A DNA stretch of 25,836 nt from a virus (Duplodnaviria > Heunggongvirae > Uroviricota > Caudoviricetes): the IMG/VR virus record IMGVR_UViG_2526164601_000026, one strand, 5' to 3'. The notes under the pieces are model-generated. The model was not told where the DNA came from. It saw only the letters and a program-made list of their open reading frames with translations, and ran no database searches. Below are positions 4,215-19,254 of this stretch, piece by piece. The position numbers and the translations under genes were made by a program. The stretch's first letter is position 1. Each line of letters begins with the position of its first letter.

Positions 4215-5423
4215 TCAGAATTCGTTGTCTGTAGCAGGTGTGCGGGGCAGGATGTCGTCGGTGAGGGACCAGTTGGTCAGGATGCGGCGTTTCCGGTCGC
4301 GATCTGGTTGTGGTTCATCCCAGATAAGACCGAGACTGAGCATATCCCGCCGTAAGCCTTCCACCGCTTCATCAACACAGGGTTCAGGGCAGGGAAGACC
4401 AAAACGCATGGCTTCGGCCTCTGCACGTGCAACGGCCACCACGCCAGCGCCTTCAATAAATCCTTTCGTGGTATTGGCGCGGTGTAATGCATAAAACAGC
4501 GTCCTGTCCACGCCTTTCAGCCAAATCCAGTTGGGTGGCGTAAGCCGCAGGTCATGTGCATACAGCCAGACCAGCCCACTGCGGACGTAGCGATGTTGTT
4601 TCAGCCATTGCTGTGCTCCGTTGCTTTTAATCACTCTCTGGAAAGCTGATTTGGCCAGTGAATAAACAGGGGTACAGAATTTCCCACTGTCCCGTTTGCT
4701 TTTAATTCTGCATGAGAGGTTCAGTGTATCCATGAGCTTTAATGCTGCCTTACGATCATCCAGGAAATACTGAAGACCAAATATGGCAAAGAGCGCTTTT
4801 TCATGTGGTGCCATGTCTTTCCAGGACGTTAAAGGTTTACCCAACTGGGCCATGAAACATCGTCTTGCAGCTGCAACATCGAGCTGCATATTGGTGATGA
4901 GAGTATGCTGCTCGACAAATGCTTCCGGGGTGAGAGCAACCCGCCGTTCAGGTCGTTTGCCACCATGAAAGAGTTTTTCCGGATCACCATCTGCCAGTAC
5001 AGGGGCGATAGCAGGGGACAACGAAGCAAAGATGTGTGGCAGTCGGGTAATATCTACTGGTCTGCGGGTGAAACGACTTTGTCCCGGATGTTGATACCAC
5101 TCCCACAAACACCAGAGTGTCACAGGTAAGAGGTACATCCACAGAATACCTATGGTCTGCTCCATGACGTTAACCCACTGGCTATAGCTTATGTTGGCGG
5201 CGTTGTTACCGGTCATGGCAAGCAGGTTGTATCGTGGTGCTGCATAGTTATGAAATGGTCCCCAGTCAACCAGTCCCCATAAGGTATGAAGAATCAGGCA
5301 GCTGGCGTAAACCACTTCCGGCAAGAATAACCATATAACGAATAGCAGCAGGATAAGAAGGACACCAACAGCGCCCCATATCTGCATAGGATCTTCTGCG
5401 ACAGGCTGTCGATTGTAAGACAT
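4215..5423 (-). CDS. Inner-membrane protein (DotM/IcmP-like; TrbA-like), first gene of the coupling-module operon
   Basis: 402-aa ORF. N-terminal TM helices (GAVGVLLILLLFVIWLFLPEVVYASCLILHTLWGLV; IGILWMYLLPVTLWCLW) then a soluble domain. GGAG RBS 8 nt upstream of ATG. Family assignment is by architecture and gene order only. Confidence 0.5.
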   Translation of the reverse strand: MSYNRQPVAEDPMQIWGAVGVLLILLLFVIWLFLPEVVYASCLILHTLWGLVDWGPFHNYAAPRYNLLAMTGNNAANISYSQWVNVMEQTIGILWMYLLPVTLWCLWEWYQHPGQSRFTRRPVDITRLPHIFASLSPAIAPVLADGDPEKLFHGGKRPERRVALTPEAFVEQHTLITNMQLDVAAARRCFMAQLGKPLTSWKDMAPHEKALFAIFGLQYFLDDRKAALKLMDTLNLSCRIKSKRDSGKFCTPVYSLAKSAFQRVIKSNGAQQWLKQHRYVRSGLVWLYAHDLRLTPPNWIWLKGVDRTLFYALHRANTTKGFIEGAGVVAVARAEAEAMRFGLPCPEPCVDEAVEGLRRDMLSLGLIWDEPQPDRDRKRRILTNWSLTDDILPRTPATDNEF

Positions 5424-5583
5424 GACAAAGTCTCCATTTCTGGAATTTAAATCAAACGGAAAGGTTAAAAATTTATTTGCAGGCGATAAGAGCTAACCAG
5501 AGGAATTAGCCGTGCGATAAAAGGATTGTTGCAGATACGAAAGTCGTTAGAATAGCTGCGGGCGCTTGAGGCTGTATGCCGAA

Positions 5584-7366
5584 AGCGTTTTGTGGACGGT
5601 ATACAGCAGAAAGCCCCTGGAGATTTTTTTATCAATCAACCAAGGGCTCTACTGTAATGCCTAGACAACATTATAGTAGCCCGATAACCGCCGGAAGGCA
5701 ATGGAGGGGCTATGATGTGTTAACACCAAGCTGTAATGTCCCCTTTCGTAACCATTCTAAAATGTCCCCACGACAATTCTCTGGGGGAGTTTTTCTATGA
5801 TCAAAGAGACTGTTACGATGAGTCATAAGGAACTCCACCGACTTCAGATTATTCAGGAGTCAATTAATCGACATATTACTCAGGAACAAGCTGCGGCACG
5901 CATTGGCATTTCTATTCGGCAGGTTAAACGTCTGGTGCAACGGTATAGAAATGAAGGGCCTTCTGGTCTGGTTTCCCCCCGACGTGGAAAGCGTCCTAAT
6001 AATTCCTTTCTACTGATTCAGAGCAACAGTAATTTCACTCCTCAAAGGCCGTTACGCTGATTTTGGACCTACGTTTGCGTGCGAAAAATTGCGTGAGATA
6101 CACGGTTTATCTTTATCCGTTGAAACTCTCAGAAAGTGGATGATAGAAGAGGGGTTATGGCGTGAACGCCGTCGTAAAATTGCCCGTATATATCAACGCC
6201 GCATGCGACGACCATCTTACGGTGAACTGATCCAGATTGATGGCTCACCTCATGACTGGTTTGAAAATCGAGGCCCCAGATGTACACTGATCGTTTTCAT
6301 TGATGATGCCACCAGTGCGTTGATGGCGTTGCGTTTTGTGCCTGCTGAAACAACCCGGGCTTACATGGAAACCCTCCGGGGTTACCTTAATGATCATGGC
6401 GTACCGCTCGCTCTCTACTCTGATAGACACAGTATATTCAGGGTAAATAACCCAGAGCGGGAAGGTGAGCTGACCCAGTTCACTCGTGCGATAAAGACAC
6501 TGGGCATCGAGCCAATCCATGCCAACAGCCCGCAGGCAAAAGGGCGGTAGAGCGCGCCAATCAGACACTACAGGACAGGCTGGTCAAAGAAATGCGGCTT
6601 CAGAATATCAGTGATATTGAAACAGCAAATGCATGGTTGCCGACCTTTATTGAAGCCTATAACAACCGGTTCGCTACGTCGCCTCGTACTACTGATAATG
6701 CTCATCTTGATGTGCACCATTCTGAAGAGGAACTGGGTTATATCTTCAGCCTACAGGCGAAGCGCGTTCTGTCTAAAAATCTCACTTTCCAGTACAAAAG
6801 CAGTGCGTTTCAGGTACGCAGTGAGGGCCGGGGATATCGACTTAGGCATTCGGTTGTTACTGTATGCGAGAACTTTGACGGTGAAATTAACGTTCTGTAT
6901 GACGGGAAAGCGCTGGGCTGGGAAAAGTATGTTGATGGCCCGGAGCCTATACCACTGGATGATGAAAAGAGTGTCCATGAACGAGTGGATAATGCCCGTA
7001 TTGATTTACGCTCAAAATACTATGTTAAACCTAAAGCTGACCATCCCTGGCTTACGCGCCGAACGCAAAGTCATCAGCAAGTTAAGCCCCCGAAGTTACC
7101 TAAAAAGAAGCCTGATCCCGATAAAAAAGATTGAAACCAAGATCGATTCGGTTGAGTGCATATCCATTCATAGGGTAGATTCTTAAGTCGCGTTTCTGGT
7201 GTTCATTTTCGGGTGGTTTGTTACTTGTTTTACCGGGGATATGCCAGAAACGCGCTGAGTCAGTCTGGGCGGTGCGCGTAATGAGGCGTTATGGCAAATA
7301 GCCTATGCTAATGTCCGCTAAGAGCAAGAAGCGGAAGTTGGCAGTTTGTGGACTGTCCCCACAAAA
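5584..7366 (+). mobile_element. Degenerate insertion sequence (approximate boundaries)
   Basis: Encloses the frameshifted transposase. Imperfect inverted similarity between the left end (gttttgtggacgg, ~5584) and the reverse complement of the right end (ttttgtggggacag, ~7345-7366). Boundaries are uncertain and no target-site duplication was identified. Confidence 0.3.
5797..7134 (+). pseudogene. DDE (rve-type) transposase with N-terminal HTH, split into three frames by two frameshifts
   Basis: ORFs 5797-6060, 6089-6550 and 6592-7134 are consecutive pieces of one ~445-aa transposase (HTH ...IGISIRQVKRLVQRY...; integrase core ...LIQIDGS...IVFIDDATS...). Frame breaks near 6035-6060 (T run) and 6545-6552 (gggcggtag, G run). 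Family guess ISNCY/IS481-like, not verified. Confidence 0.65.
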
Positions 7367-12032: not shown

Positions 12033-12108
12033 GGCCCTTTAGCTCAGTGGTGAGAGCGAGCGACTCATAATCGCCAGGTCGCTGGTTCAAATCCAGCAAG
12101 GGCCACCA
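12033..12108 (+). tRNA. ileZ: tRNA with CAU anticodon, ileX/ileZ-like (tRNA-Ile2)
   Basis: 76-nt cloverleaf: acceptor GGCCCTT/AAGGGCC, D-arm GCTCAGTGGTGAGAGC, anticodon loop CTCATAA, T-arm GCTGGTTCAAATCCAGC, encoded CCA. Closer to ileX than to elongator Met. Confidence 0.85.
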
Positions 12109-12209: not shown

Positions 12210-12286
12210 GCGTTGTTAGCTCAGCCGGACAGAGCAATTGCCTTCTAAGCAATCGGTCACTGGTTCGAATCCAGTACAGCGCGCCA
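12210..12286 (+). tRNA. argO: tRNA-Arg (UCU anticodon)
   Basis: 77-nt cloverleaf: acceptor GCGTTGT/ACAGCGC, anticodon stem-loop ATTGC-CTTCTAA-GCAAT, T-arm ACTGGTTCGAATCCAGT, encoded CCA. Confidence 0.85.
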
Positions 12287-12750: not shown

Positions 12751-13141
12751 ATACATATCTGGATTATCACCTGTTACGGTAAAAAGTGATTGCTTACTGT
12801 TTTTGTGAATGGCATTGCAGCAGCCGGATAATGTCAGTGCTGGCTGACGGTGTGCTGGTGGCGGGTGTGGTGGTTGTTGCTTTCCCGTTGCTGAAAAAGA
12901 AAACGCCAGACTGTTAGCCGGGTATCAGTTAGCGGGAGAAATTTTTAAATACTTCACAATTCAGGCGGTTGACTGTTGTCTGGTTTGCGGGGAGTTTGTT
13001 AAAAGAAACTGGCATGGTGAATCCCCCTGTGCGGAGGGGCAATCAGCGAGTAGGTATATGGGATAATCGCGGATTCAGGTGCTGGTACTGAATTCACCGG
13101 GAGGCACCCGGCACCATGCAATGGCACATAGCGCCACTCTC

Positions 13142-13178
13142 CAGCCCCTCTCCGGAGGGGCTGTTTATATTGATTTTG
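13142..13178 (+). terminator. Rho-independent terminator-like hairpin
   Basis: cagcccctc-tccg-gaggggctg GC-rich stem followed by TTTATATTGATTTTG. Confidence 0.4.
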
Positions 13179-13777: not shown

Positions 13778-15685
13778 ATGGTGGAAAGAACCATGGCATT
13801 TAAACACTATGATGTTGTCAGGGCGGCGTCGCCATCAGATCTTGCGGAAAAGCTGACACATAAACTGAAAGAGGGCTGGCAGCCGTTTGGTAGTCCGGTG
13901 GCCATAACCCCTTATACTCTGATGCAGGCGATTACAGCAGAAGGTGATGTGGTGGTCAGTGGTGCAACTGAGCCGGATTGGTACTACGTCATCGTACTGG
14001 CCGGGCAGTCCAATGCCATGGCTTACGGTGAAGGGCTTCCGCTGCCGGATTCATACGATGCTCCGGATCCGCGCATTAAACAGCTGGCGCGCCGCAGTAC
14101 AGTGACGCCGGGTGGGGCTGCCTGCAGATATAACGATATTATTCCGGCCGACCACTGCCTGCATGATGTGCAGGATATGAGTACGCTGAATCATCCGAAG
14201 GCAGACCTGAGCAAAGGGCAGTACGGCTGTGTCGGCCAGGGCTTACATATTGCCAAACGTCTGCTGCCGTATATCCCCAAAAATGCCGGGATTCTTCTTG
14301 TTCCCTGCTCCCGTGGTGGTTCGGCATTCACCCAGGGCGCGGAGGGGACATTCAGTGCGGACACGGGGGCCAGCCAGGATTCGGCGCGCTGGGGTGTGGG
14401 TAAACCGTTATATCAGGACCTGATTGCGCGCACTAAAGCTGCATTACAGAAGAACCCGAAAAATGTGTTGCTGGCGGTGTGCTGGATGCAGGGAGAGTTT
14501 GACATGAGCGCCGCCACCTACGCACAGCAACCTGCGCTGTTTACAGCCATGCTGAAGCAGTTTCGTGCTGACCTCACTGTGTTTAACGCGCAGTGTCATG
14601 GTGGCAGTGCTGTAAATGTGCCGTGGATTTGTGGTGACACGACGTATTACTGGAAAAATACATACGCTACCCAGTACGACACCGTGTACGGCGGGTATAA
14701 AAACAGGGAGAGTGAGGGCGTTTATTTTGTGCCCTTCATGACAGACGGTAACGGCGTCAATACCGCCACTAACGCGCCGGCAGAAGATCCGGATATTCCG
14801 GCATCAGGATATTACGGTGCGGCATCGAGAACGAATGGAAACCAGGTATCATCAAACCGCCCGACACATTTCAGTTCATGGGCGCGCAGGAGCATTATTC
14901 CGGATCGTCTGGCAACCGCTATTCTGAACGCAGCCGGGCGCACCTCCGCCTTCATCAGTGGTAAGGCACCGGAAATCAAACCCTCGCCCGGCGGCAACAC
15001 GCCATCGGGTCCGTCTGCAGATACGTCCGTTCGCACAATCTCCCTGCTGCCGGCAGCCGGAGAGGCTGCTGCGCAGGGCTGGAGCATTAAGGATGGCGGA
15101 ATTCAGTTGTCAGATGGTGTATTTAAGATCACCAAGCAGAGCAATAAAACCTGGTCCCTGACGCATCCGGTGGATGACGCAATTACCCTGCTGACACAGG
15201 GCGGCAGACTGACCTGTAAGTTCCGCCTGTCAGGCGCACTGACCAACAATCAGTTCGGGCTGGGGATTTATCTGTATACGGATGCTCCCGTTCCTGATGG
15301 TGTGGCGATGACGGGTACCGGTAATCCGTTCCTGATGTCGTACTTCACTCAGACCACTGACGGCAGAGTGAATCTGATGCATCACAGGAAAGCCGGAAAC
15401 ACGAAGCTGGGGGAGTTCGGCGATTACGGTAACGACTGGCAGACGCTGGAGCTGGTGTTCACCGCCGGCAGTGCCACGGTTACTCCGAAACTGAATGGAG
15501 TGGCTGGCCCGGCATTCCAGGTTATAAAAGACAGTCTGACACTGGGACTGAATGCGCTGACGCTGACGGATGTTACAAAAAATGCAGCGTATGGCGTTGA
15601 GATAGAAAGTCTGGTGCTGGAGATAAATGCACCGGCAGCATATAAAAAAGAGCCAGCGACTGACCTGAAAGAAGACGCTGGCTAA
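13778..15685 (+). CDS. nanS-p: NanS-p-like prophage sialate O-acetylesterase (N-terminal DUF1737-like plus SASA esterase domain)
   Basis: 635-aa ORF. N-terminus MAFKHYDVVRAASPSDLAEKLTHKLKEGWQPFGSPVA; esterase motif region VIVLAGQSNAMAY. Occupies the position downstream of Q/tRNAs typical of Stx-phage nanS-p. Alternative start at 13793. Confidence 0.7.
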   Translation: MVERTMAFKHYDVVRAASPSDLAEKLTHKLKEGWQPFGSPVAITPYTLMQAITAEGDVVVSGATEPDWYYVIVLAGQSNAMAYGEGLPLPDSYDAPDPRIKQLARRSTVTPGGAACRYNDIIPADHCLHDVQDMSTLNHPKADLSKGQYGCVGQGLHIAKRLLPYIPKNAGILLVPCSRGGSAFTQGAEGTFSADTGASQDSARWGVGKPLYQDLIARTKAALQKNPKNVLLAVCWMQGEFDMSAATYAQQPALFTAMLKQFRADLTVFNAQCHGGSAVNVPWICGDTTYYWKNTYATQYDTVYGGYKNRESEGVYFVPFMTDGNGVNTATNAPAEDPDIPASGYYGAASRTNGNQVSSNRPTHFSSWARRSIIPDRLATAILNAAGRTSAFISGKAPEIKPSPGGNTPSGPSADTSVRTISLLPAAGEAAAQGWSIKDGGIQLSDGVFKITKQSNKTWSLTHPVDDAITLLTQGGRLTCKFRLSGALTNNQFGLGIYLYTDAPVPDGVAMTGTGNPFLMSYFTQTTDGRVNLMHHRKAGNTKLGEFGDYGNDWQTLELVFTAGSATVTPKLNGVAGPAFQVIKDSLTLGLNALTLTDVTKNAAYGVEIESLVLEINAPAAYKKEPATDLKEDAG

Positions 15686-15857
15686 AAGGCCTTATATGTT
15701 TGTAGATGATACTTATATTTGGCAGTACATTTTCTGACAGACAGTGACGGGTGTTGTCAAGATATTGTGTCATTTATAACCTGAATCAGGGGGGCCGGAA
15801 TGTTATCTGGCATTTTTAGCAGAGCCTGAATGCCATAATCACGGCTCCCGGAGTTGG

Positions 15858-15892
15858 CCGTCAGTGGGTGACACTGGCGGTTTTTTTGTTTT
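15858..15892 (+). terminator. Rho-independent terminator upstream of lysis cassette
   Basis: ccgtcagtg-ggtga-cactggcgg hairpin followed by TTTTTTTGTTTTT. Confidence 0.5.
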
Positions 15893-15937
15893 TCTTTACT
15901 TTCATTTTCTGTCGGCGGTGACGGAGACATACATCAG

Positions 15938-16144
15938 ATGGAAAAAATCACAACAGGTGTGTCATACACCACGTCAGCGGTGGGGACGGGATACTGGTTA
16001 CTGCAGCTGCTGGACAAAGTCTCTCCGTCCCAGTGGGTGGCAATAGGTGTGCTGGGAAGTCTGCTGTTTGGCCTGCTGACGTATCTGACTAACCTGTATT
16101 TCAAAATCAGAGAGGACCGTCGTAAGGTGGCGCGGGGAGAGTAG
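15938..16144 (+). CDS. S: Class II holin / pinholin (S21-like)
   Basis: 68-aa [71 protein letters not shown] with two TM helices. GGAG RBS 11 nt upstream. Confidence 0.85.
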
Positions 16145-16399
16145 TCGATGAATAAACAATACGAACTGGTTGTAAAATGAATATTTCTAACTGAAAAAAC
16201 GTTCCATGAGGTAAGAAAAGGTCACAGGCAATCAATAACAGGACGTGATGAAAGACCCTTGCATTTGTGCGCTTTCTCTTTAGATAGCAGCAGATACTGA
16301 AAATCTGAGTTGTCGGGGAGTCAGGGATACAGCTGTGCAAGAGTTGGTCATTGTGATTCCATTGAAATCCTGTATGCCATGAAGGGCAGGATTTTATGG

Positions 16400-16714
16400 C
16401 TACCTGAGCTTTGGTGATAGTAAGTTGAAAATTCGCATTTTTTGCTGACATGCGTAACGAGAATCCCATAAGCAGGGAGGACTTAATTCTTCATTAACCC
16501 ATGCGTTGATATTATGTTTCAGCCGTTGAAGCATCAGCGGTGTTAATGTTGTGGTAATAATATCCAGCGTTTTATGTGAGATCTTACCGTAAGGGTCTGC
16601 AAGAATGCTGCTTGTTGCTTCGTTATTATCTGCCATCAGAAGAAGTAACTCTGATTTAACGTTTTCTGTCATTAGTTGTAAAAATCTTCTGCGCAAACTT
16701 TCTTTACTGTTCAT
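16400..16714 (-). CDS. Hypothetical protein encoded antisense between holin and endolysin (possibly YdfR-like)
   Basis: 104-aa ORF in the 690-bp gap between S and R on the opposite strand. Weak RBS. Qin has a ~103-aa gene (ydfR) between its holin and endolysin, but homology is not verified. Confidence 0.3.
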   Translation of the reverse strand: MNSKESLRRRFLQLMTENVKSELLLLMADNNEATSSILADPYGKISHKTLDIITTTLTPLMLQRLKHNINAWVNEELSPPCLWDSRYACQQKMRIFNLLSPKLR

Positions 16715-16831
16715 TTATATGGCTTCATTTGTTGTAATCTGCTGCGTCTCAAGGGATATGTTTATGAGAGCGACCATGAGTGTTGGATTATATACCTAAC
16801 ATATCAAGGGATTAGAAATCGATAAATCCCC

Positions 16832-17365
16832 ATGCACGAAAAAATAAAATACGGCCTGTCGGCTGCCGTTCTGGCGCTGATTGGTGCAGGTGCTTCTGCG
16901 CCTGAAATCCTCGACCAGTTTCTGGATGAAAAGGAAGGTAACCACACCACGGCATACCGTGATGGTGCGGGGATCTGGACCATCTGCCGTGGTGCCATTC
17001 TGGTGGATGGTAAGCCTGTTATTCCTGGCATGAAGCTGTCAAAGGAAAAATGCGACCGGGTTAATGCCATCGAACGTGACAAGGCGCTGGCATGGGTGGA
17101 GAAAAACATCCGGGTGCCGCTGACCGAACCCCAGAAAGCGGGGATCGCGTCATTCTGTCCGTACAACATTGGCCCCGGTAAGTGCTTCCCGTCGACGTTT
17201 TATAAACGAATTAATGCAGGCGATCGAAAAGGTGCCTGTGAGGCGATTCGCTGGTGGATTAAGGACGGTGGCAGAGACTGCCGTATCCGTTCAAATAATT
17301 GCTACGGTCAGGTCTCACGGCGTGACCAGGAGAGCGCGCTGGCGTGCTGGGACATCGACAGATAG
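16832..17365 (+). CDS. R: SAR endolysin (phage lysozyme, GH24, R21-like)
   Basis: 177-aa ORF. N-terminal signal-anchor-release segment YGLSAAVLALIGAGASAPEIL, then lysozyme core (EGNHTTAYRDGAGIWTICRG...). Confidence 0.85.
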   Translation: MHEKIKYGLSAAVLALIGAGASAPEILDQFLDEKEGNHTTAYRDGAGIWTICRGAILVDGKPVIPGMKLSKEKCDRVNAIERDKALAWVEKNIRVPLTEPQKAGIASFCPYNIGPGKCFPSTFYKRINAGDRKGACEAIRWWIKDGGRDCRIRSNNCYGQVSRRDQESALACWDIDR

Positions 17366-17454
17366 CAGAATATTTTCCTGAAAAATGACGTTGGCCAACG
17401 CGGGTGGATAACACGAAATCCTGAAAACTGGTAAAACCTAAGTGAATAAAAGTA

Positions 17455-17495
17455 AAAACCCCGTTTGTTGGCAGCAAGCGGGGTTTTGTGTTTTC
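17455..17495 (+). terminator. Terminator-like extended hairpin between endolysin and Rz
   Basis: aaaaccccg...cggggtttt stem with inner ttg-gcag-caa helix, followed by GTGTTTTCT. Confidence 0.35.
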
Positions 17496-17700
17496 TGACC
17501 TTGAGCAAGGCAAGGGAGAAATTATGGGTAGGGAGGTACTTTCCCTGTGAGGAAGTATAAAAGATTCTTTCTGAGGTTGTCCATTATGAAAGGCATTGAA
17601 GTGGAGACGCCAGCCAGGCTGGATTTAACAAGAGCGGCAGCTTTTGCCATTCGTATTGTGGCCATTGCTGTTCTGGTCTGGGCAATCCGTTGGTGGTGAT

Positions 17701-18168
17701 ATGAACCGTGTTCTGTGCGTGGTTATCATTGTCCTGCTGGTGGCCTGTGGTGCGCTTAGTCTGGGGCTGAATCATTACCGTGATCACGCCATCATCTACA
17801 AAGAGCAGCGCGATAAAAAAGCCAGTGAGCTGGAGCTGGCGAACGCGACAATTACTGATATGCAGATACGCCAGCGTGATGTCGCTGCACTTGATGCCAG
17901 ATACTCGAGGGAATTAGCCGATGCGAGAGCTGAAAATGAAACTCTGCGTGCTGATGTTGCCGCTGGTCGTAAGCGCCTGCGGATCAACGCCACCTGCTCC
18001 GGTACCGTGCGTGAAGCCACCGGCACCTCCGGCGTGGATAATGCAACCGGCCCCCGACTGGCAGACACCGCTGAACGGGATTATTTCATCCTCAGAGAAC
18101 GGCTGATGGCAATGCAGAAGCAACTGGAAGGAGCACAGGAATATATCCGTACCCAGTGTATACCGTGA
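17701..18168 (+). CDS. Rz: Rz i-spanin
   Basis: Start MNRVLCVVIIVLLVACGALSLGLNHY (N-terminal TM) chosen over the upstream track start at 17644; coiled-coil-rich periplasmic domain. Embedded Rz1 in the +1 frame. Confidence 0.75.
   Translation: MNRVLCVVIIVLLVACGALSLGLNHYRDHAIIYKEQRDKKASELELANATITDMQIRQRDVAALDARYSRELADARAENETLRADVAAGRKRLRINATCSGTVREATGTSGVDNATGPRLADTAERDYFILRERLMAMQKQLEGAQEYIRTQCIP
17936..18106 (+). CDS. Rz1: Rz1 o-spanin lipoprotein (embedded in Rz)
   Basis: MKLCVLMLPLVVSAC lipobox followed by a proline-rich mature peptide; entirely within Rz in another frame. Confidence 0.65.
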   Translation: MKLCVLMLPLVVSACGSTPPAPVPCVKPPAPPAWIMQPAPDWQTPLNGIISSSENG

Positions 18169-18633: not shown

Positions 18634-18948
18634 ATGCTACATGATCACGTGGCAGAATGTCTGGAGAAAAAAGGACTGTACCGGAGAGCAGCTGAACGAT
18701 GGGCAAAAGTGATGGTACAGCTAAGTGATGACCAGAAAAGAAAAGTGGCGGCACAGAAACGAGCAGAGTGTTTGCGTAAGGCGCGCCGGACTCCGGTTTC
18801 ACCGGTGAACCTGACCGAAATAAAACAAGCGGTCAACAGACTACATTCTGAGTTGGGAATGGGATTTGAAGAGCGGCGGGTATTCCGACGATATAAAGGG
18901 ACAGGAGAACAGAATACGTCCGGAAACGCGCGGTCAAAAAAATGCTAA
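18634..18948 (+). CDS. PerC/Pch-family transcriptional regulator-like protein
   Basis: 104-aa ORF MLHDHVAECLEKKGLYRRAAERWAKVM..., resembling the PerC-family N-terminal motif. Preceded by a ~200-bp AT/T-tract-rich region (18420-18620). Family call from memory. Confidence 0.55.
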   Translation: MLHDHVAECLEKKGLYRRAAERWAKVMVQLSDDQKRKVAAQKRAECLRKARRTPVSPVNLTEIKQAVNRLHSELGMGFEERRVFRRYKGTGEQNTSGNARSKKC

Positions 18949-19029: not shown

Positions 19030-19254
19030 TTAAGTAAACCTGTCTGAACAGGTGCTCTGGTCGTGTTTGTCTTTGTTGGGTACAAATTGAGAATATTTTT
19101 CATTAATTAATCTTCTTCTGCAGGCTTCAATAACCCACGCTGAAAAATTACCTGAACCTTTCAGGTCAAGAGCGATGTTAATTTGTTCAATTATCTGGTT
19201 TGGAAATCGGATGTTGCGGGTTGTTGTTCTGCGGGTTCTGTTCTTTGATGACAT
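19030..19254 (-). CDS. Ribbon-helix-helix (Arc/CopG-like) DNA-binding protein
   Basis: 74-aa ORF with TRNIRFPNQIIEQINIALDLKGSGNFSAWVIEACRRRL, a typical RHH beta-strand/helix pattern. Confidence 0.5.
   Translation of the reverse strand: MSSKNRTRRTTTRNIRFPNQIIEQINIALDLKGSGNFSAWVIEACRRRLINEKYSQFVPNKDKHDQSTCSDRFT

Follow-up and report, generated by a model that had tools for sequence, protein, structure and literature searches.

Lambdoid phages are known to carry morons that are oriented against the late operon, such as the bor gene, located downstream of Rz in phage lambda, and the porin gene lc/nmpC, located between Q and S in PA-2 and DLP12. Both bor and lc are expressed in lysogens. Closer to the lysis genes, the Stx2-converting phage 86 and the Stx2a phage 12E129 contain an antisense gene, orf6 (BAF34038.1 and BCI98957.1, respectively; family phrog_1853), that is inserted between the holin gene S and the lysozyme gene R, with its start facing R, and is accompanied by an intact convergent gene, orf5, and by an upstream hairpin. 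In Qin, the ydfR gene is found between essQ and rrrQ. Here we analyze the holin-endolysin interval of a Shiga-toxin-type E. coli prophage, a Caudoviricetes genome from IMG/VR (record IMGVR_UViG_2526164601_000026; the whole stretch of 25,836 nucleotides is referred to below as the window). This interval is the same class II holin-lysozyme slot as that of the Qin ydfR gene, and it contains a homolog of the phage 86 and 12E129 genes and of phrog_1853 (about 53% identity by tblastn, same length) in the same position and orientation. Unlike phage 86 and 12E129, the window has only a relic of orf5 and, in place of the hairpin, a block with a TATAAT box. The features of the region are listed in Table 1.

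The preliminary description pointed to a separation of the holin and endolysin genes by an insert with a 104-aa ORF on the minus strand. This arrangement is borne out, with 687 bp (16145-16831) between the holin end at 16144 and the lysozyme start at 16832. The accompanying assumption that the two genes are normally adjacent is too simple for this phage group: ydfR, orf5, or orf5 together with orf6 is frequently found in the slot between S and R, and in other cases orf6 alone, so that orf6 is optional between conserved genes. The base composition of the insert also deviates from its surroundings: the GC content is 0.36-0.44 across 16100-16800, as compared with 0.51-0.56 in the flanking esterase, holin, and lysozyme genes. 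The last 36 bp before the lysozyme gene (about 16794-16829) are common to ydfR-type cassettes.

Table 1. Features of the lysis region and the holin-endolysin insert (positions in the window).
Feature	Position	Strand	Remarks
nanS-p-type SASA esterase gene	13778-15685		upstream of the holin gene
Class II (phage 21 S-type) holin, 68 aa	15938-16144	+	PF04971, E = 1.3e-32; PGAP name "class II holin family protein"; left border of the insert
Open frame, 120 aa	16107-16469	-	judged not a gene
Start relic of a YdfR(DUF1327)-orf5 fusion	16148-16180	+	MNKQYELVVK followed by TGA
orf5 C-terminal fragment	16230-16393 (approx.)	+	found by tblastn; decayed, frame-shifted, two in-frame stops
orf6-family gene, 104 aa	16400-16714	-	phrog_1853; copy in Sakai is ECs_1097 of prophage Sp4; WP_000138558.1 is the 90-aa PGAP call
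Divergent intergenic region, 117 bp	16715-16831	-	orf6 5' region and the plus-strand stretch just upstream of the lysozyme start
SAR-type phage lysozyme (endolysin), 177 aa	16832-17365	+	PF00959, E = 7.7e-24; PGAP name "lysozyme"; right border of the insert
Rz with embedded Rz1 frame	17644-18168

The holin gene of the window lacks the upstream in-frame Met codon of its relatives, for instance that of locus L003 (L and P numbers denote the loci and proteins compared in this study), as positions 15929-15940 read ATA CAT CAG ATG; hence this copy may fail to yield the longer, antiholin-type form of S21-like genes. The 278-bp gap between the lysozyme and Rz genes (17366-17643), a slot that holds an antirepressor gene (ant) in other Stx-type phages, contains a strong terminator-like hairpin with a T-run on the plus strand (17455-17487) and, just past it, a small 37-aa ORF that is annotated in relatives. 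Rz is directly followed by a low-GC block comprising a PerC-family (pch-like) regulator gene (18634-18948, plus strand) and a YlcI/YnfO-family gene on the opposite strand (19030-19254, minus); these are further moron-like genes of the late region. Just upstream of the nanS-p-type esterase gene, Rfam recognizes an STnc100 sRNA (132 bits; 12983-13172, plus strand), which is itself preceded by two tRNA genes (12033-12105 and 12210-12283); these lie in the interval from Q to S, which is the stx site in Stx phages. In the early region of the prophage, a match to the Rfam sok antitoxin RNA (RF01794, 133.7 bits; 5560-5717, plus strand) indicates a hok/sok-type type I toxin-antitoxin locus, and hokD is annotated in the corresponding region of a closely related strain.

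The 104-aa ORF is a genuine conserved gene. A homology search, as proposed in the preliminary description, identified phrog_1853, with a profile match over the full length (residues 1-102, E = 3.5e-47), and homologs in Stx2 phages and prophages. Homologs at 50-80% identity have the same place and orientation by the lysis genes in L002, L003, phage 86, and 12E129, while the whole range of homologs extends from 21% to 80% identity. The preliminary description named lack of conservation among related prophages, combined with lack of a minus-strand transcript, as a refutation; conservation is observed, and the Nei-Gojobori dN/dS ratios for four homologs are 0.15-0.32. The PGAP model WP_000138558.1, a minus-strand hypothetical protein, begins at an internal Met and comprises 90 aa. 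The N-terminal 14 residues that it omits are kept in diverged homologs, which makes the 104-aa start at 16714 likely; the start of the RefSeq model is probably misplaced by 14 codons in the downstream direction.

As far as seen here, the orf6 family is very small and is found almost only in E. coli sequences and E. coli-type prophages. A profile search of 1.84 billion representative proteins produced only 21 matches, including relatives of roughly 105 aa, and a search of the phage collection with the Orf6 protein retrieved only four records. The DNA of the insert had no match in the phage collection, and scanning 185,579 GTDB species-representative genomes for class A and class B patterns revealed no relatives of orf6. 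All members of the orf6 cluster are annotated as hypothetical and have no other name. The protein has no match in Pfam, NCBIfam, or PADLOC, and no literature was found on ECs1097, on WP_000138558, or on an antisense gene by the O157 holin.

Within E. coli, the 687-bp insert (at least 80% covered) is present in 626 of 5426 complete genomes, mostly those of STEC, and 622 records contain it at 99% identity or higher. The carriers include O157:H7 EDL933 and strains of serogroups O26, O45, O103, O111, O121, and O145. Matches to the holin and lysozyme genes on either side were obtained in 3825 genomes, 626 of which contain the insert.

The puzzling 255 bp that follow the holin gene (16145-16399) are accounted for by a decayed YdfR-orf5 gene with a large internal deletion, judging from the remaining similarities. 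All 10 residues encoded by the 33 nt from 16148 are identical to the N-terminus of the 287-aa DUF1327-orf5 protein P0105 from L016, and the same truncated 10-codon start is common to the orphan variants L072, L073, and L075. The translation of 16230-16352, which reads NQ, a stop, QDVMKDPCICALSL, a second stop, and IAADTENLSCRGVRDTAVQELVI, is 39% identical to residues 146-186 of orf5, through the two stops; this tblastn match is weak (E = 2e-6 against a 276-nt database), and its position and orientation are as in the intact loci. Finally, MKGRI at 16379-16393 resembles the C-terminal end of orf5, (Y)LKGRI.

Intact orf5 genes (phrog_1085, 189-268 aa, plus strand) lie between the holin gene and orf6 in phage 86, 12E129, L003, L009, L010, and L019-21, where orf5 and orf6 are convergent and either overlap at their 3' ends by at most 21 nt or are a few nucleotides apart. 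The orf5 protein of phage 86 combines a YdfR/DUF1327 N-terminus with the orf5 C-domain, an architecture that recurs in many proteins of 287-296 aa annotated as YdfR family. The N-terminal modules of orf5 are freely swapped (YdfR/DUF1327, coiled-coil, and others), for instance in L101 of IMG/VR (4328-5341), and the C-terminal part of about 100 aa is conserved, with the motifs IGRCMGxLQxAAEIE, DNPPFK, and PGxxYLKGRI. Except for DUF1327 on the N-terminus of phage 86 orf5, no PADLOC, Pfam, or NCBIfam match was obtained for orf5, and its AlphaFold2 model has a pLDDT of 48, too low for fold searches. [quoted passage not shown] Literature searches on DUF1327, on ydfR with holin, and on phage 86 with holin returned nothing on orf6, and for ydfR only the RNase E interaction (PMC13232886).

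A correspondence of the antisense ORF to ydfR of Qin, as considered in the preliminary description, holds for the slot, where ydfR is also found on the plus strand in L004, but not for the identity of the gene. Whereas ydfR has the orientation of the lysis genes (plus strand) and is transcribed together with them, orf6 is on the minus strand and has no DUF1327 (PF07041) match; only the plus-strand 10-codon relic of the window resembles a YdfR-type start. On the other hand, orf6 is the usual convergent neighbor of YdfR-orf5 fusion genes. The second antisense ORF of the preliminary description (16107-16469) is indeed open, but we do not regard it as a gene. It covers the holin 3' end and the pseudogene relic of the opposite strand, matches no Pfam, PHROG, or NCBIfam family, and is left unannotated by PGAP. 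In diverged copies of the insert, the frame has an in-frame stop (L075) or differences that are mostly non-synonymous (L072 and L073).

The region upstream of orf6 contains a perfect minus-strand -10 box TATAAT (16792-16787), 73 nt upstream of the orf6 ATG. The surrounding block GGTATATAATCC is kept upstream of orf6 in six of seven class A loci and is present also in L027, where the neighbor is a different holin, so it travels with orf6. The -35 box is weak (TTCTAA, with 19-nt spacing), and a strict promoter consensus scan reported no site in 16715-16831. Downstream of orf6, no convincing terminator was found: the hairpin after the stop is no better than shuffled sequence (z-score -0.74), and the next minus-strand terminator-like site is located near the holin start (15970-15956). 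In the class B relatives (phage 86, 12E129, L009, L012, and L015), the TATAAT block is absent and a conserved hairpin CAGCCCGCCAGTGG...CACTGGCGTTT is found instead. The latter (CAGCCCGCCAGTGG-N4-6-CACTGGCGTTT) precedes the gene by about 60 nt and is on the same strand as orf6, for instance at about 3905-3935 in L006, and also in L007, L009, L012, and L015. It travels with orf6 whether the neighbor is R, a holin, or an HNH gene, and it looks like a terminator or attenuator ahead of orf6. An inverted repeat in the 5' untranslated region, TCTCA-N13-TGAGA (about 16772-16748), is kept in five of seven loci with no compensatory change, and we make no claim for it. Rfam identified no RNA family in 15600-17700, apart from one sub-threshold chance match.

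We suggest, with moderate confidence, that the insert is the remnant of a convergent orf5/orf6 cassette, in which orf5 has become a relic and orf6 persists as an independently transcribed and probably lysogen-expressed moron. The cassette sits in the variable holin-endolysin slot, or just upstream of the holin gene, in lambdoid E. coli phages; in the window, the plus-strand late gene orf5 has become a pseudogene relic, and orf6 has remained intact and under purifying selection. The gene would use its own promoter in the divergent region, with the -10 box described above, and be transcribed against the Q-dependent late operon. As its transcription opposes the late operon, orf6 may be expected to be active in the lysogen and to be silenced in lytic growth by head-on late transcription, and this mode of expression would class it as a moron with bor and the lc/nmpC porin gene. 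The role of the protein we would guess to lie outside the lysis machinery, in protein-protein contacts that benefit the lysogen or prophage, for example, in exclusion of or immunity against related phages.

The moron was one of the options in the preliminary description, and it agrees with the optional presence of orf6, its lower GC content and opposite strand, the TATAAT block that travels with it, and its intactness in degraded prophages and after the loss of its neighbor. As to the transcription signals, the conserved TATAAT block stands against a weak -35 box, a silent promoter scan, the lack of a convincing terminator, and the absence of the block from the class B relatives.

Comparison of the loci shows that orf6 is kept intact on its own and apparently has no need of orf5. 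An intact orf6 next to an orf5 relic or without orf5 is found in the window-type loci, L024/25, L026, and L027/28. L024-L026 are prophage remnants with no lysis genes nearby, and in L027/28 orf6 is just upstream of an antisense porin gene of the same orientation, between Q and a holin_8/holin_3_7/GH108 cassette. The orphan variants L072, L073, and L075 contain exactly the same orf5 relic as the window, so the orphan state predates their divergence. In these variants the relic has diverged by 5.9-7.8% and orf6 by 2.2-3.5%, that is, the relic drifts two to three times faster. The orphan orf6 has 2-4 non-synonymous versus 5-7 synonymous differences (pN/pS 0.11-0.15; one-sided binomial p 0.003-0.006), a result that is supportive rather than conclusive, given only 7-11 substitutions in three related sequences.

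A different role for Orf6 could be derived from the pairing of orf6 with orf5, which is also part of the evidence for the cassette. In a census of 102 IMG/VR loci with orf6, all 48 window-type loci are without orf5, whereas in loci of other types that extend beyond the orf6 3' end, about 52 in number, orf6 is immediately followed by a convergent orf5, mostly of full length and cut only at contig ends; the exception is L076, a truncated contig of the L002 type with no orf5. Outside the window type, the 3' ends of the two genes overlap by at most 33 nt or are separated by less than 35 nt. The distant orf6 relatives P0019 (L015), P0023 (L012-14), and P0032 (L011) are convergent with a protein of about 185 aa, the C-terminal 100 or so residues of which are homologous to the orf5 C-domain. 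These pairs are located upstream of the holin gene, and the holins belong to other families. The pairing is thereby kept down to about 21-36% identity to the window orf6. Further, orf6 is 100% identical between some loci in which the YdfR part of orf5 is only 61-64% identical, indicating that recombination breaks fall inside orf5 while the C-domain and orf6 stay linked.

Orf6 could accordingly be pictured as a partner-specific antidote or modulator that binds and neutralizes the C-domain of the late protein Orf5. Expressed in the lysogen, it would guard against leaky Orf5, and in lytic growth late transcription would silence orf6 by convergent interference; the orphan of the window would, in the manner of orphan immunity genes, act in trans on Orf5 from other lambdoid phages, whether co-resident or incoming. 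We consider this unlikely, even though several observations agree with it: the tail-to-tail arrangement of orf6 and the orf5 C-domain in nearly all loci of other types, its survival in diverged relatives and across different lysis cassettes, the position of the breakpoints inside orf5, and the net charge of the Orf6 family, which is not conserved (pI 9.3, 6.2, and 4.6) and fits protein binding better than nucleic-acid binding. The linkage, however, is expected to be tight anyway when 3' ends overlap, and orf5 is common without orf6, for instance in L016-18, where it ends 36 nt before the lysozyme gene. Among genomes, 1528 have a DNA match to orf5, as compared with 626 for the window-type orf6, 95 for the phage 86-type orf6, and roughly 770 for orf6 of any type. 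Conversely, in several typical O157:H7 genomes among the matches listed only the orf6 part of the query matched, so that they appear to carry an orphan orf6 without any orf5, and the purifying selection on orf6 persists without orf5 in cis. Finally, neither protein matches profiles of toxins, antitoxins, or defence systems.

A type II toxin-antitoxin system or a known anti-phage defence was also considered for the pair and rejected: the genes are convergent and not co-transcribed, PADLOC, Pfam, and NCBIfam recognized no toxin, antitoxin, or defence domains in them, and loci with orf5 only are common. Nevertheless, the near-constant pairing of orf6 with the orf5 C-domain and the location by the lysis genes could reflect a functional link rather than mere linkage. 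In its most far-reaching form, which we offer as a speculation with a low chance of being correct, the orf5 C-domain and orf6 would constitute an undescribed two-component lambdoid module, composed of a late effector and a lysogen-expressed helical partner, joined at their 3' ends so that late transcription flips the balance, and the orphan orf6 of STEC would be a trans-acting immunity or exclusion factor against phages with orf5. If it existed, such a module would have kept its association with lysis cassettes, comprising at least four holin types, even where identity to the window orf6 drops to about 21-36%.

The structure of Orf6 is relevant to the other option of the preliminary description, a regulator of lysis, for which we found no direct support. 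AlphaFold2 gives a confident five-helix bundle (pLDDT 87.4, pTM 0.78), so Orf6 is predicted to be a soluble all-alpha protein; fold searches with this model yielded no informative structural match and no functional clue. Neither a transmembrane segment nor a signal peptide is evident in the sequence or in the all-helical model, and profile and structure searches revealed nothing that resembles a holin, antiholin, spanin, or known lysis regulator. On these grounds, Orf6 was not assigned to the holin-, antiholin-, or spanin-type lysis proteins, for which transmembrane segments, lipoprotein signals, or lysis-family matches would be expected. The sole hint of a role in lysis is that the family is found in or beside the lysis cassette wherever lysis genes are present. 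Orf6 acting on the pinholin or the SAR endolysin, or the minus-strand transcript acting as an antisense RNA or roadblock, would then tune the expression of holin and endolysin and the timing of lysis. The geometry would suit such a function, as the orf6 start faces the start of a lysis gene, that of lysozyme in the window and that of the holin in L011, L013, L015, and L027 (in L012 an HNH gene intervenes), the cases spanning four different holin families, and as a transcript without a terminator directly after orf6 could run antisense through the holin gene toward the site at 15970-15956. We nonetheless regard regulation of lysis as quite improbable, given the features of the protein, the intact orf6 in the remnants L024-L026 with no lysis genes nearby, the many related cassettes that function without orf6, and the purifying selection at the protein level, which implies that more than an RNA effect is kept.

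We consider it highly unlikely that orf6 is a non-functional leftover, carried along by a recent deletion that recombination distributed over STEC prophages and not decayed so far. In favor of this, all of the insert, together with the dead orf5 relic, shows 99% identity or more in 622 records, which makes conservation within this type little informative, and in the L002 lineage, also without orf5, orf6 has lost its stop, is called a pseudogene by PGAP, and has frameshifted C-termini (P0004, P0006, P0011, and P0012), but the prevalence of synonymous differences and the slower drift of orf6 relative to the relic in L072, L073, and L075, and the intact ORF in at least four further contexts without orf5, argue against it.

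Common and already annotated as hypothetical, orf6 is an ordinary accessory gene of prophages, of a kind that is well known, and we see no sign of a novel mechanism or system. The gene was already known as a hypothetical protein, a PHROG family, and orf6 of phage 86, and morons of the lambdoid late region are well known; in the literature searched, we found no description of the orf5 relic, the corrected orf6 start, the convergent pairing of the orf5 C-domain with orf6 across cassettes, or the selection on the orphan gene. The relevance of orf6 comes from its distribution and neighborhood: it is present in about 12% of complete E. coli genomes, among them O157:H7 EDL933 and Sakai as well as the major non-O157 STEC serogroups, and in this late region the nanS-p esterase gene precedes the holin gene and a pch-type virulence regulator gene follows Rz. 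If made in the lysogen, a factor encoded at this place could affect prophage induction, the competition between the many co-resident lambdoid prophages, or lysis and thereby toxin release.

Among the described systems, bor and lc differ from orf6 in their products, as they encode envelope proteins with signal sequences, whereas Orf6 is predicted to be a soluble helical bundle, and in that they are known to be expressed in lysogens, which for orf6 we infer. The three genes also have features in common: like orf6, bor and lc/nmpC are optional, are located in the late or lysis region opposite to the late operon, have a lower GC content, and possess their own upstream block. The annotation of phage 86 shows bor beside Rz in antisense orientation, and in L027/28 orf6 adjoins an antisense porin gene similar to lc/nmpC.
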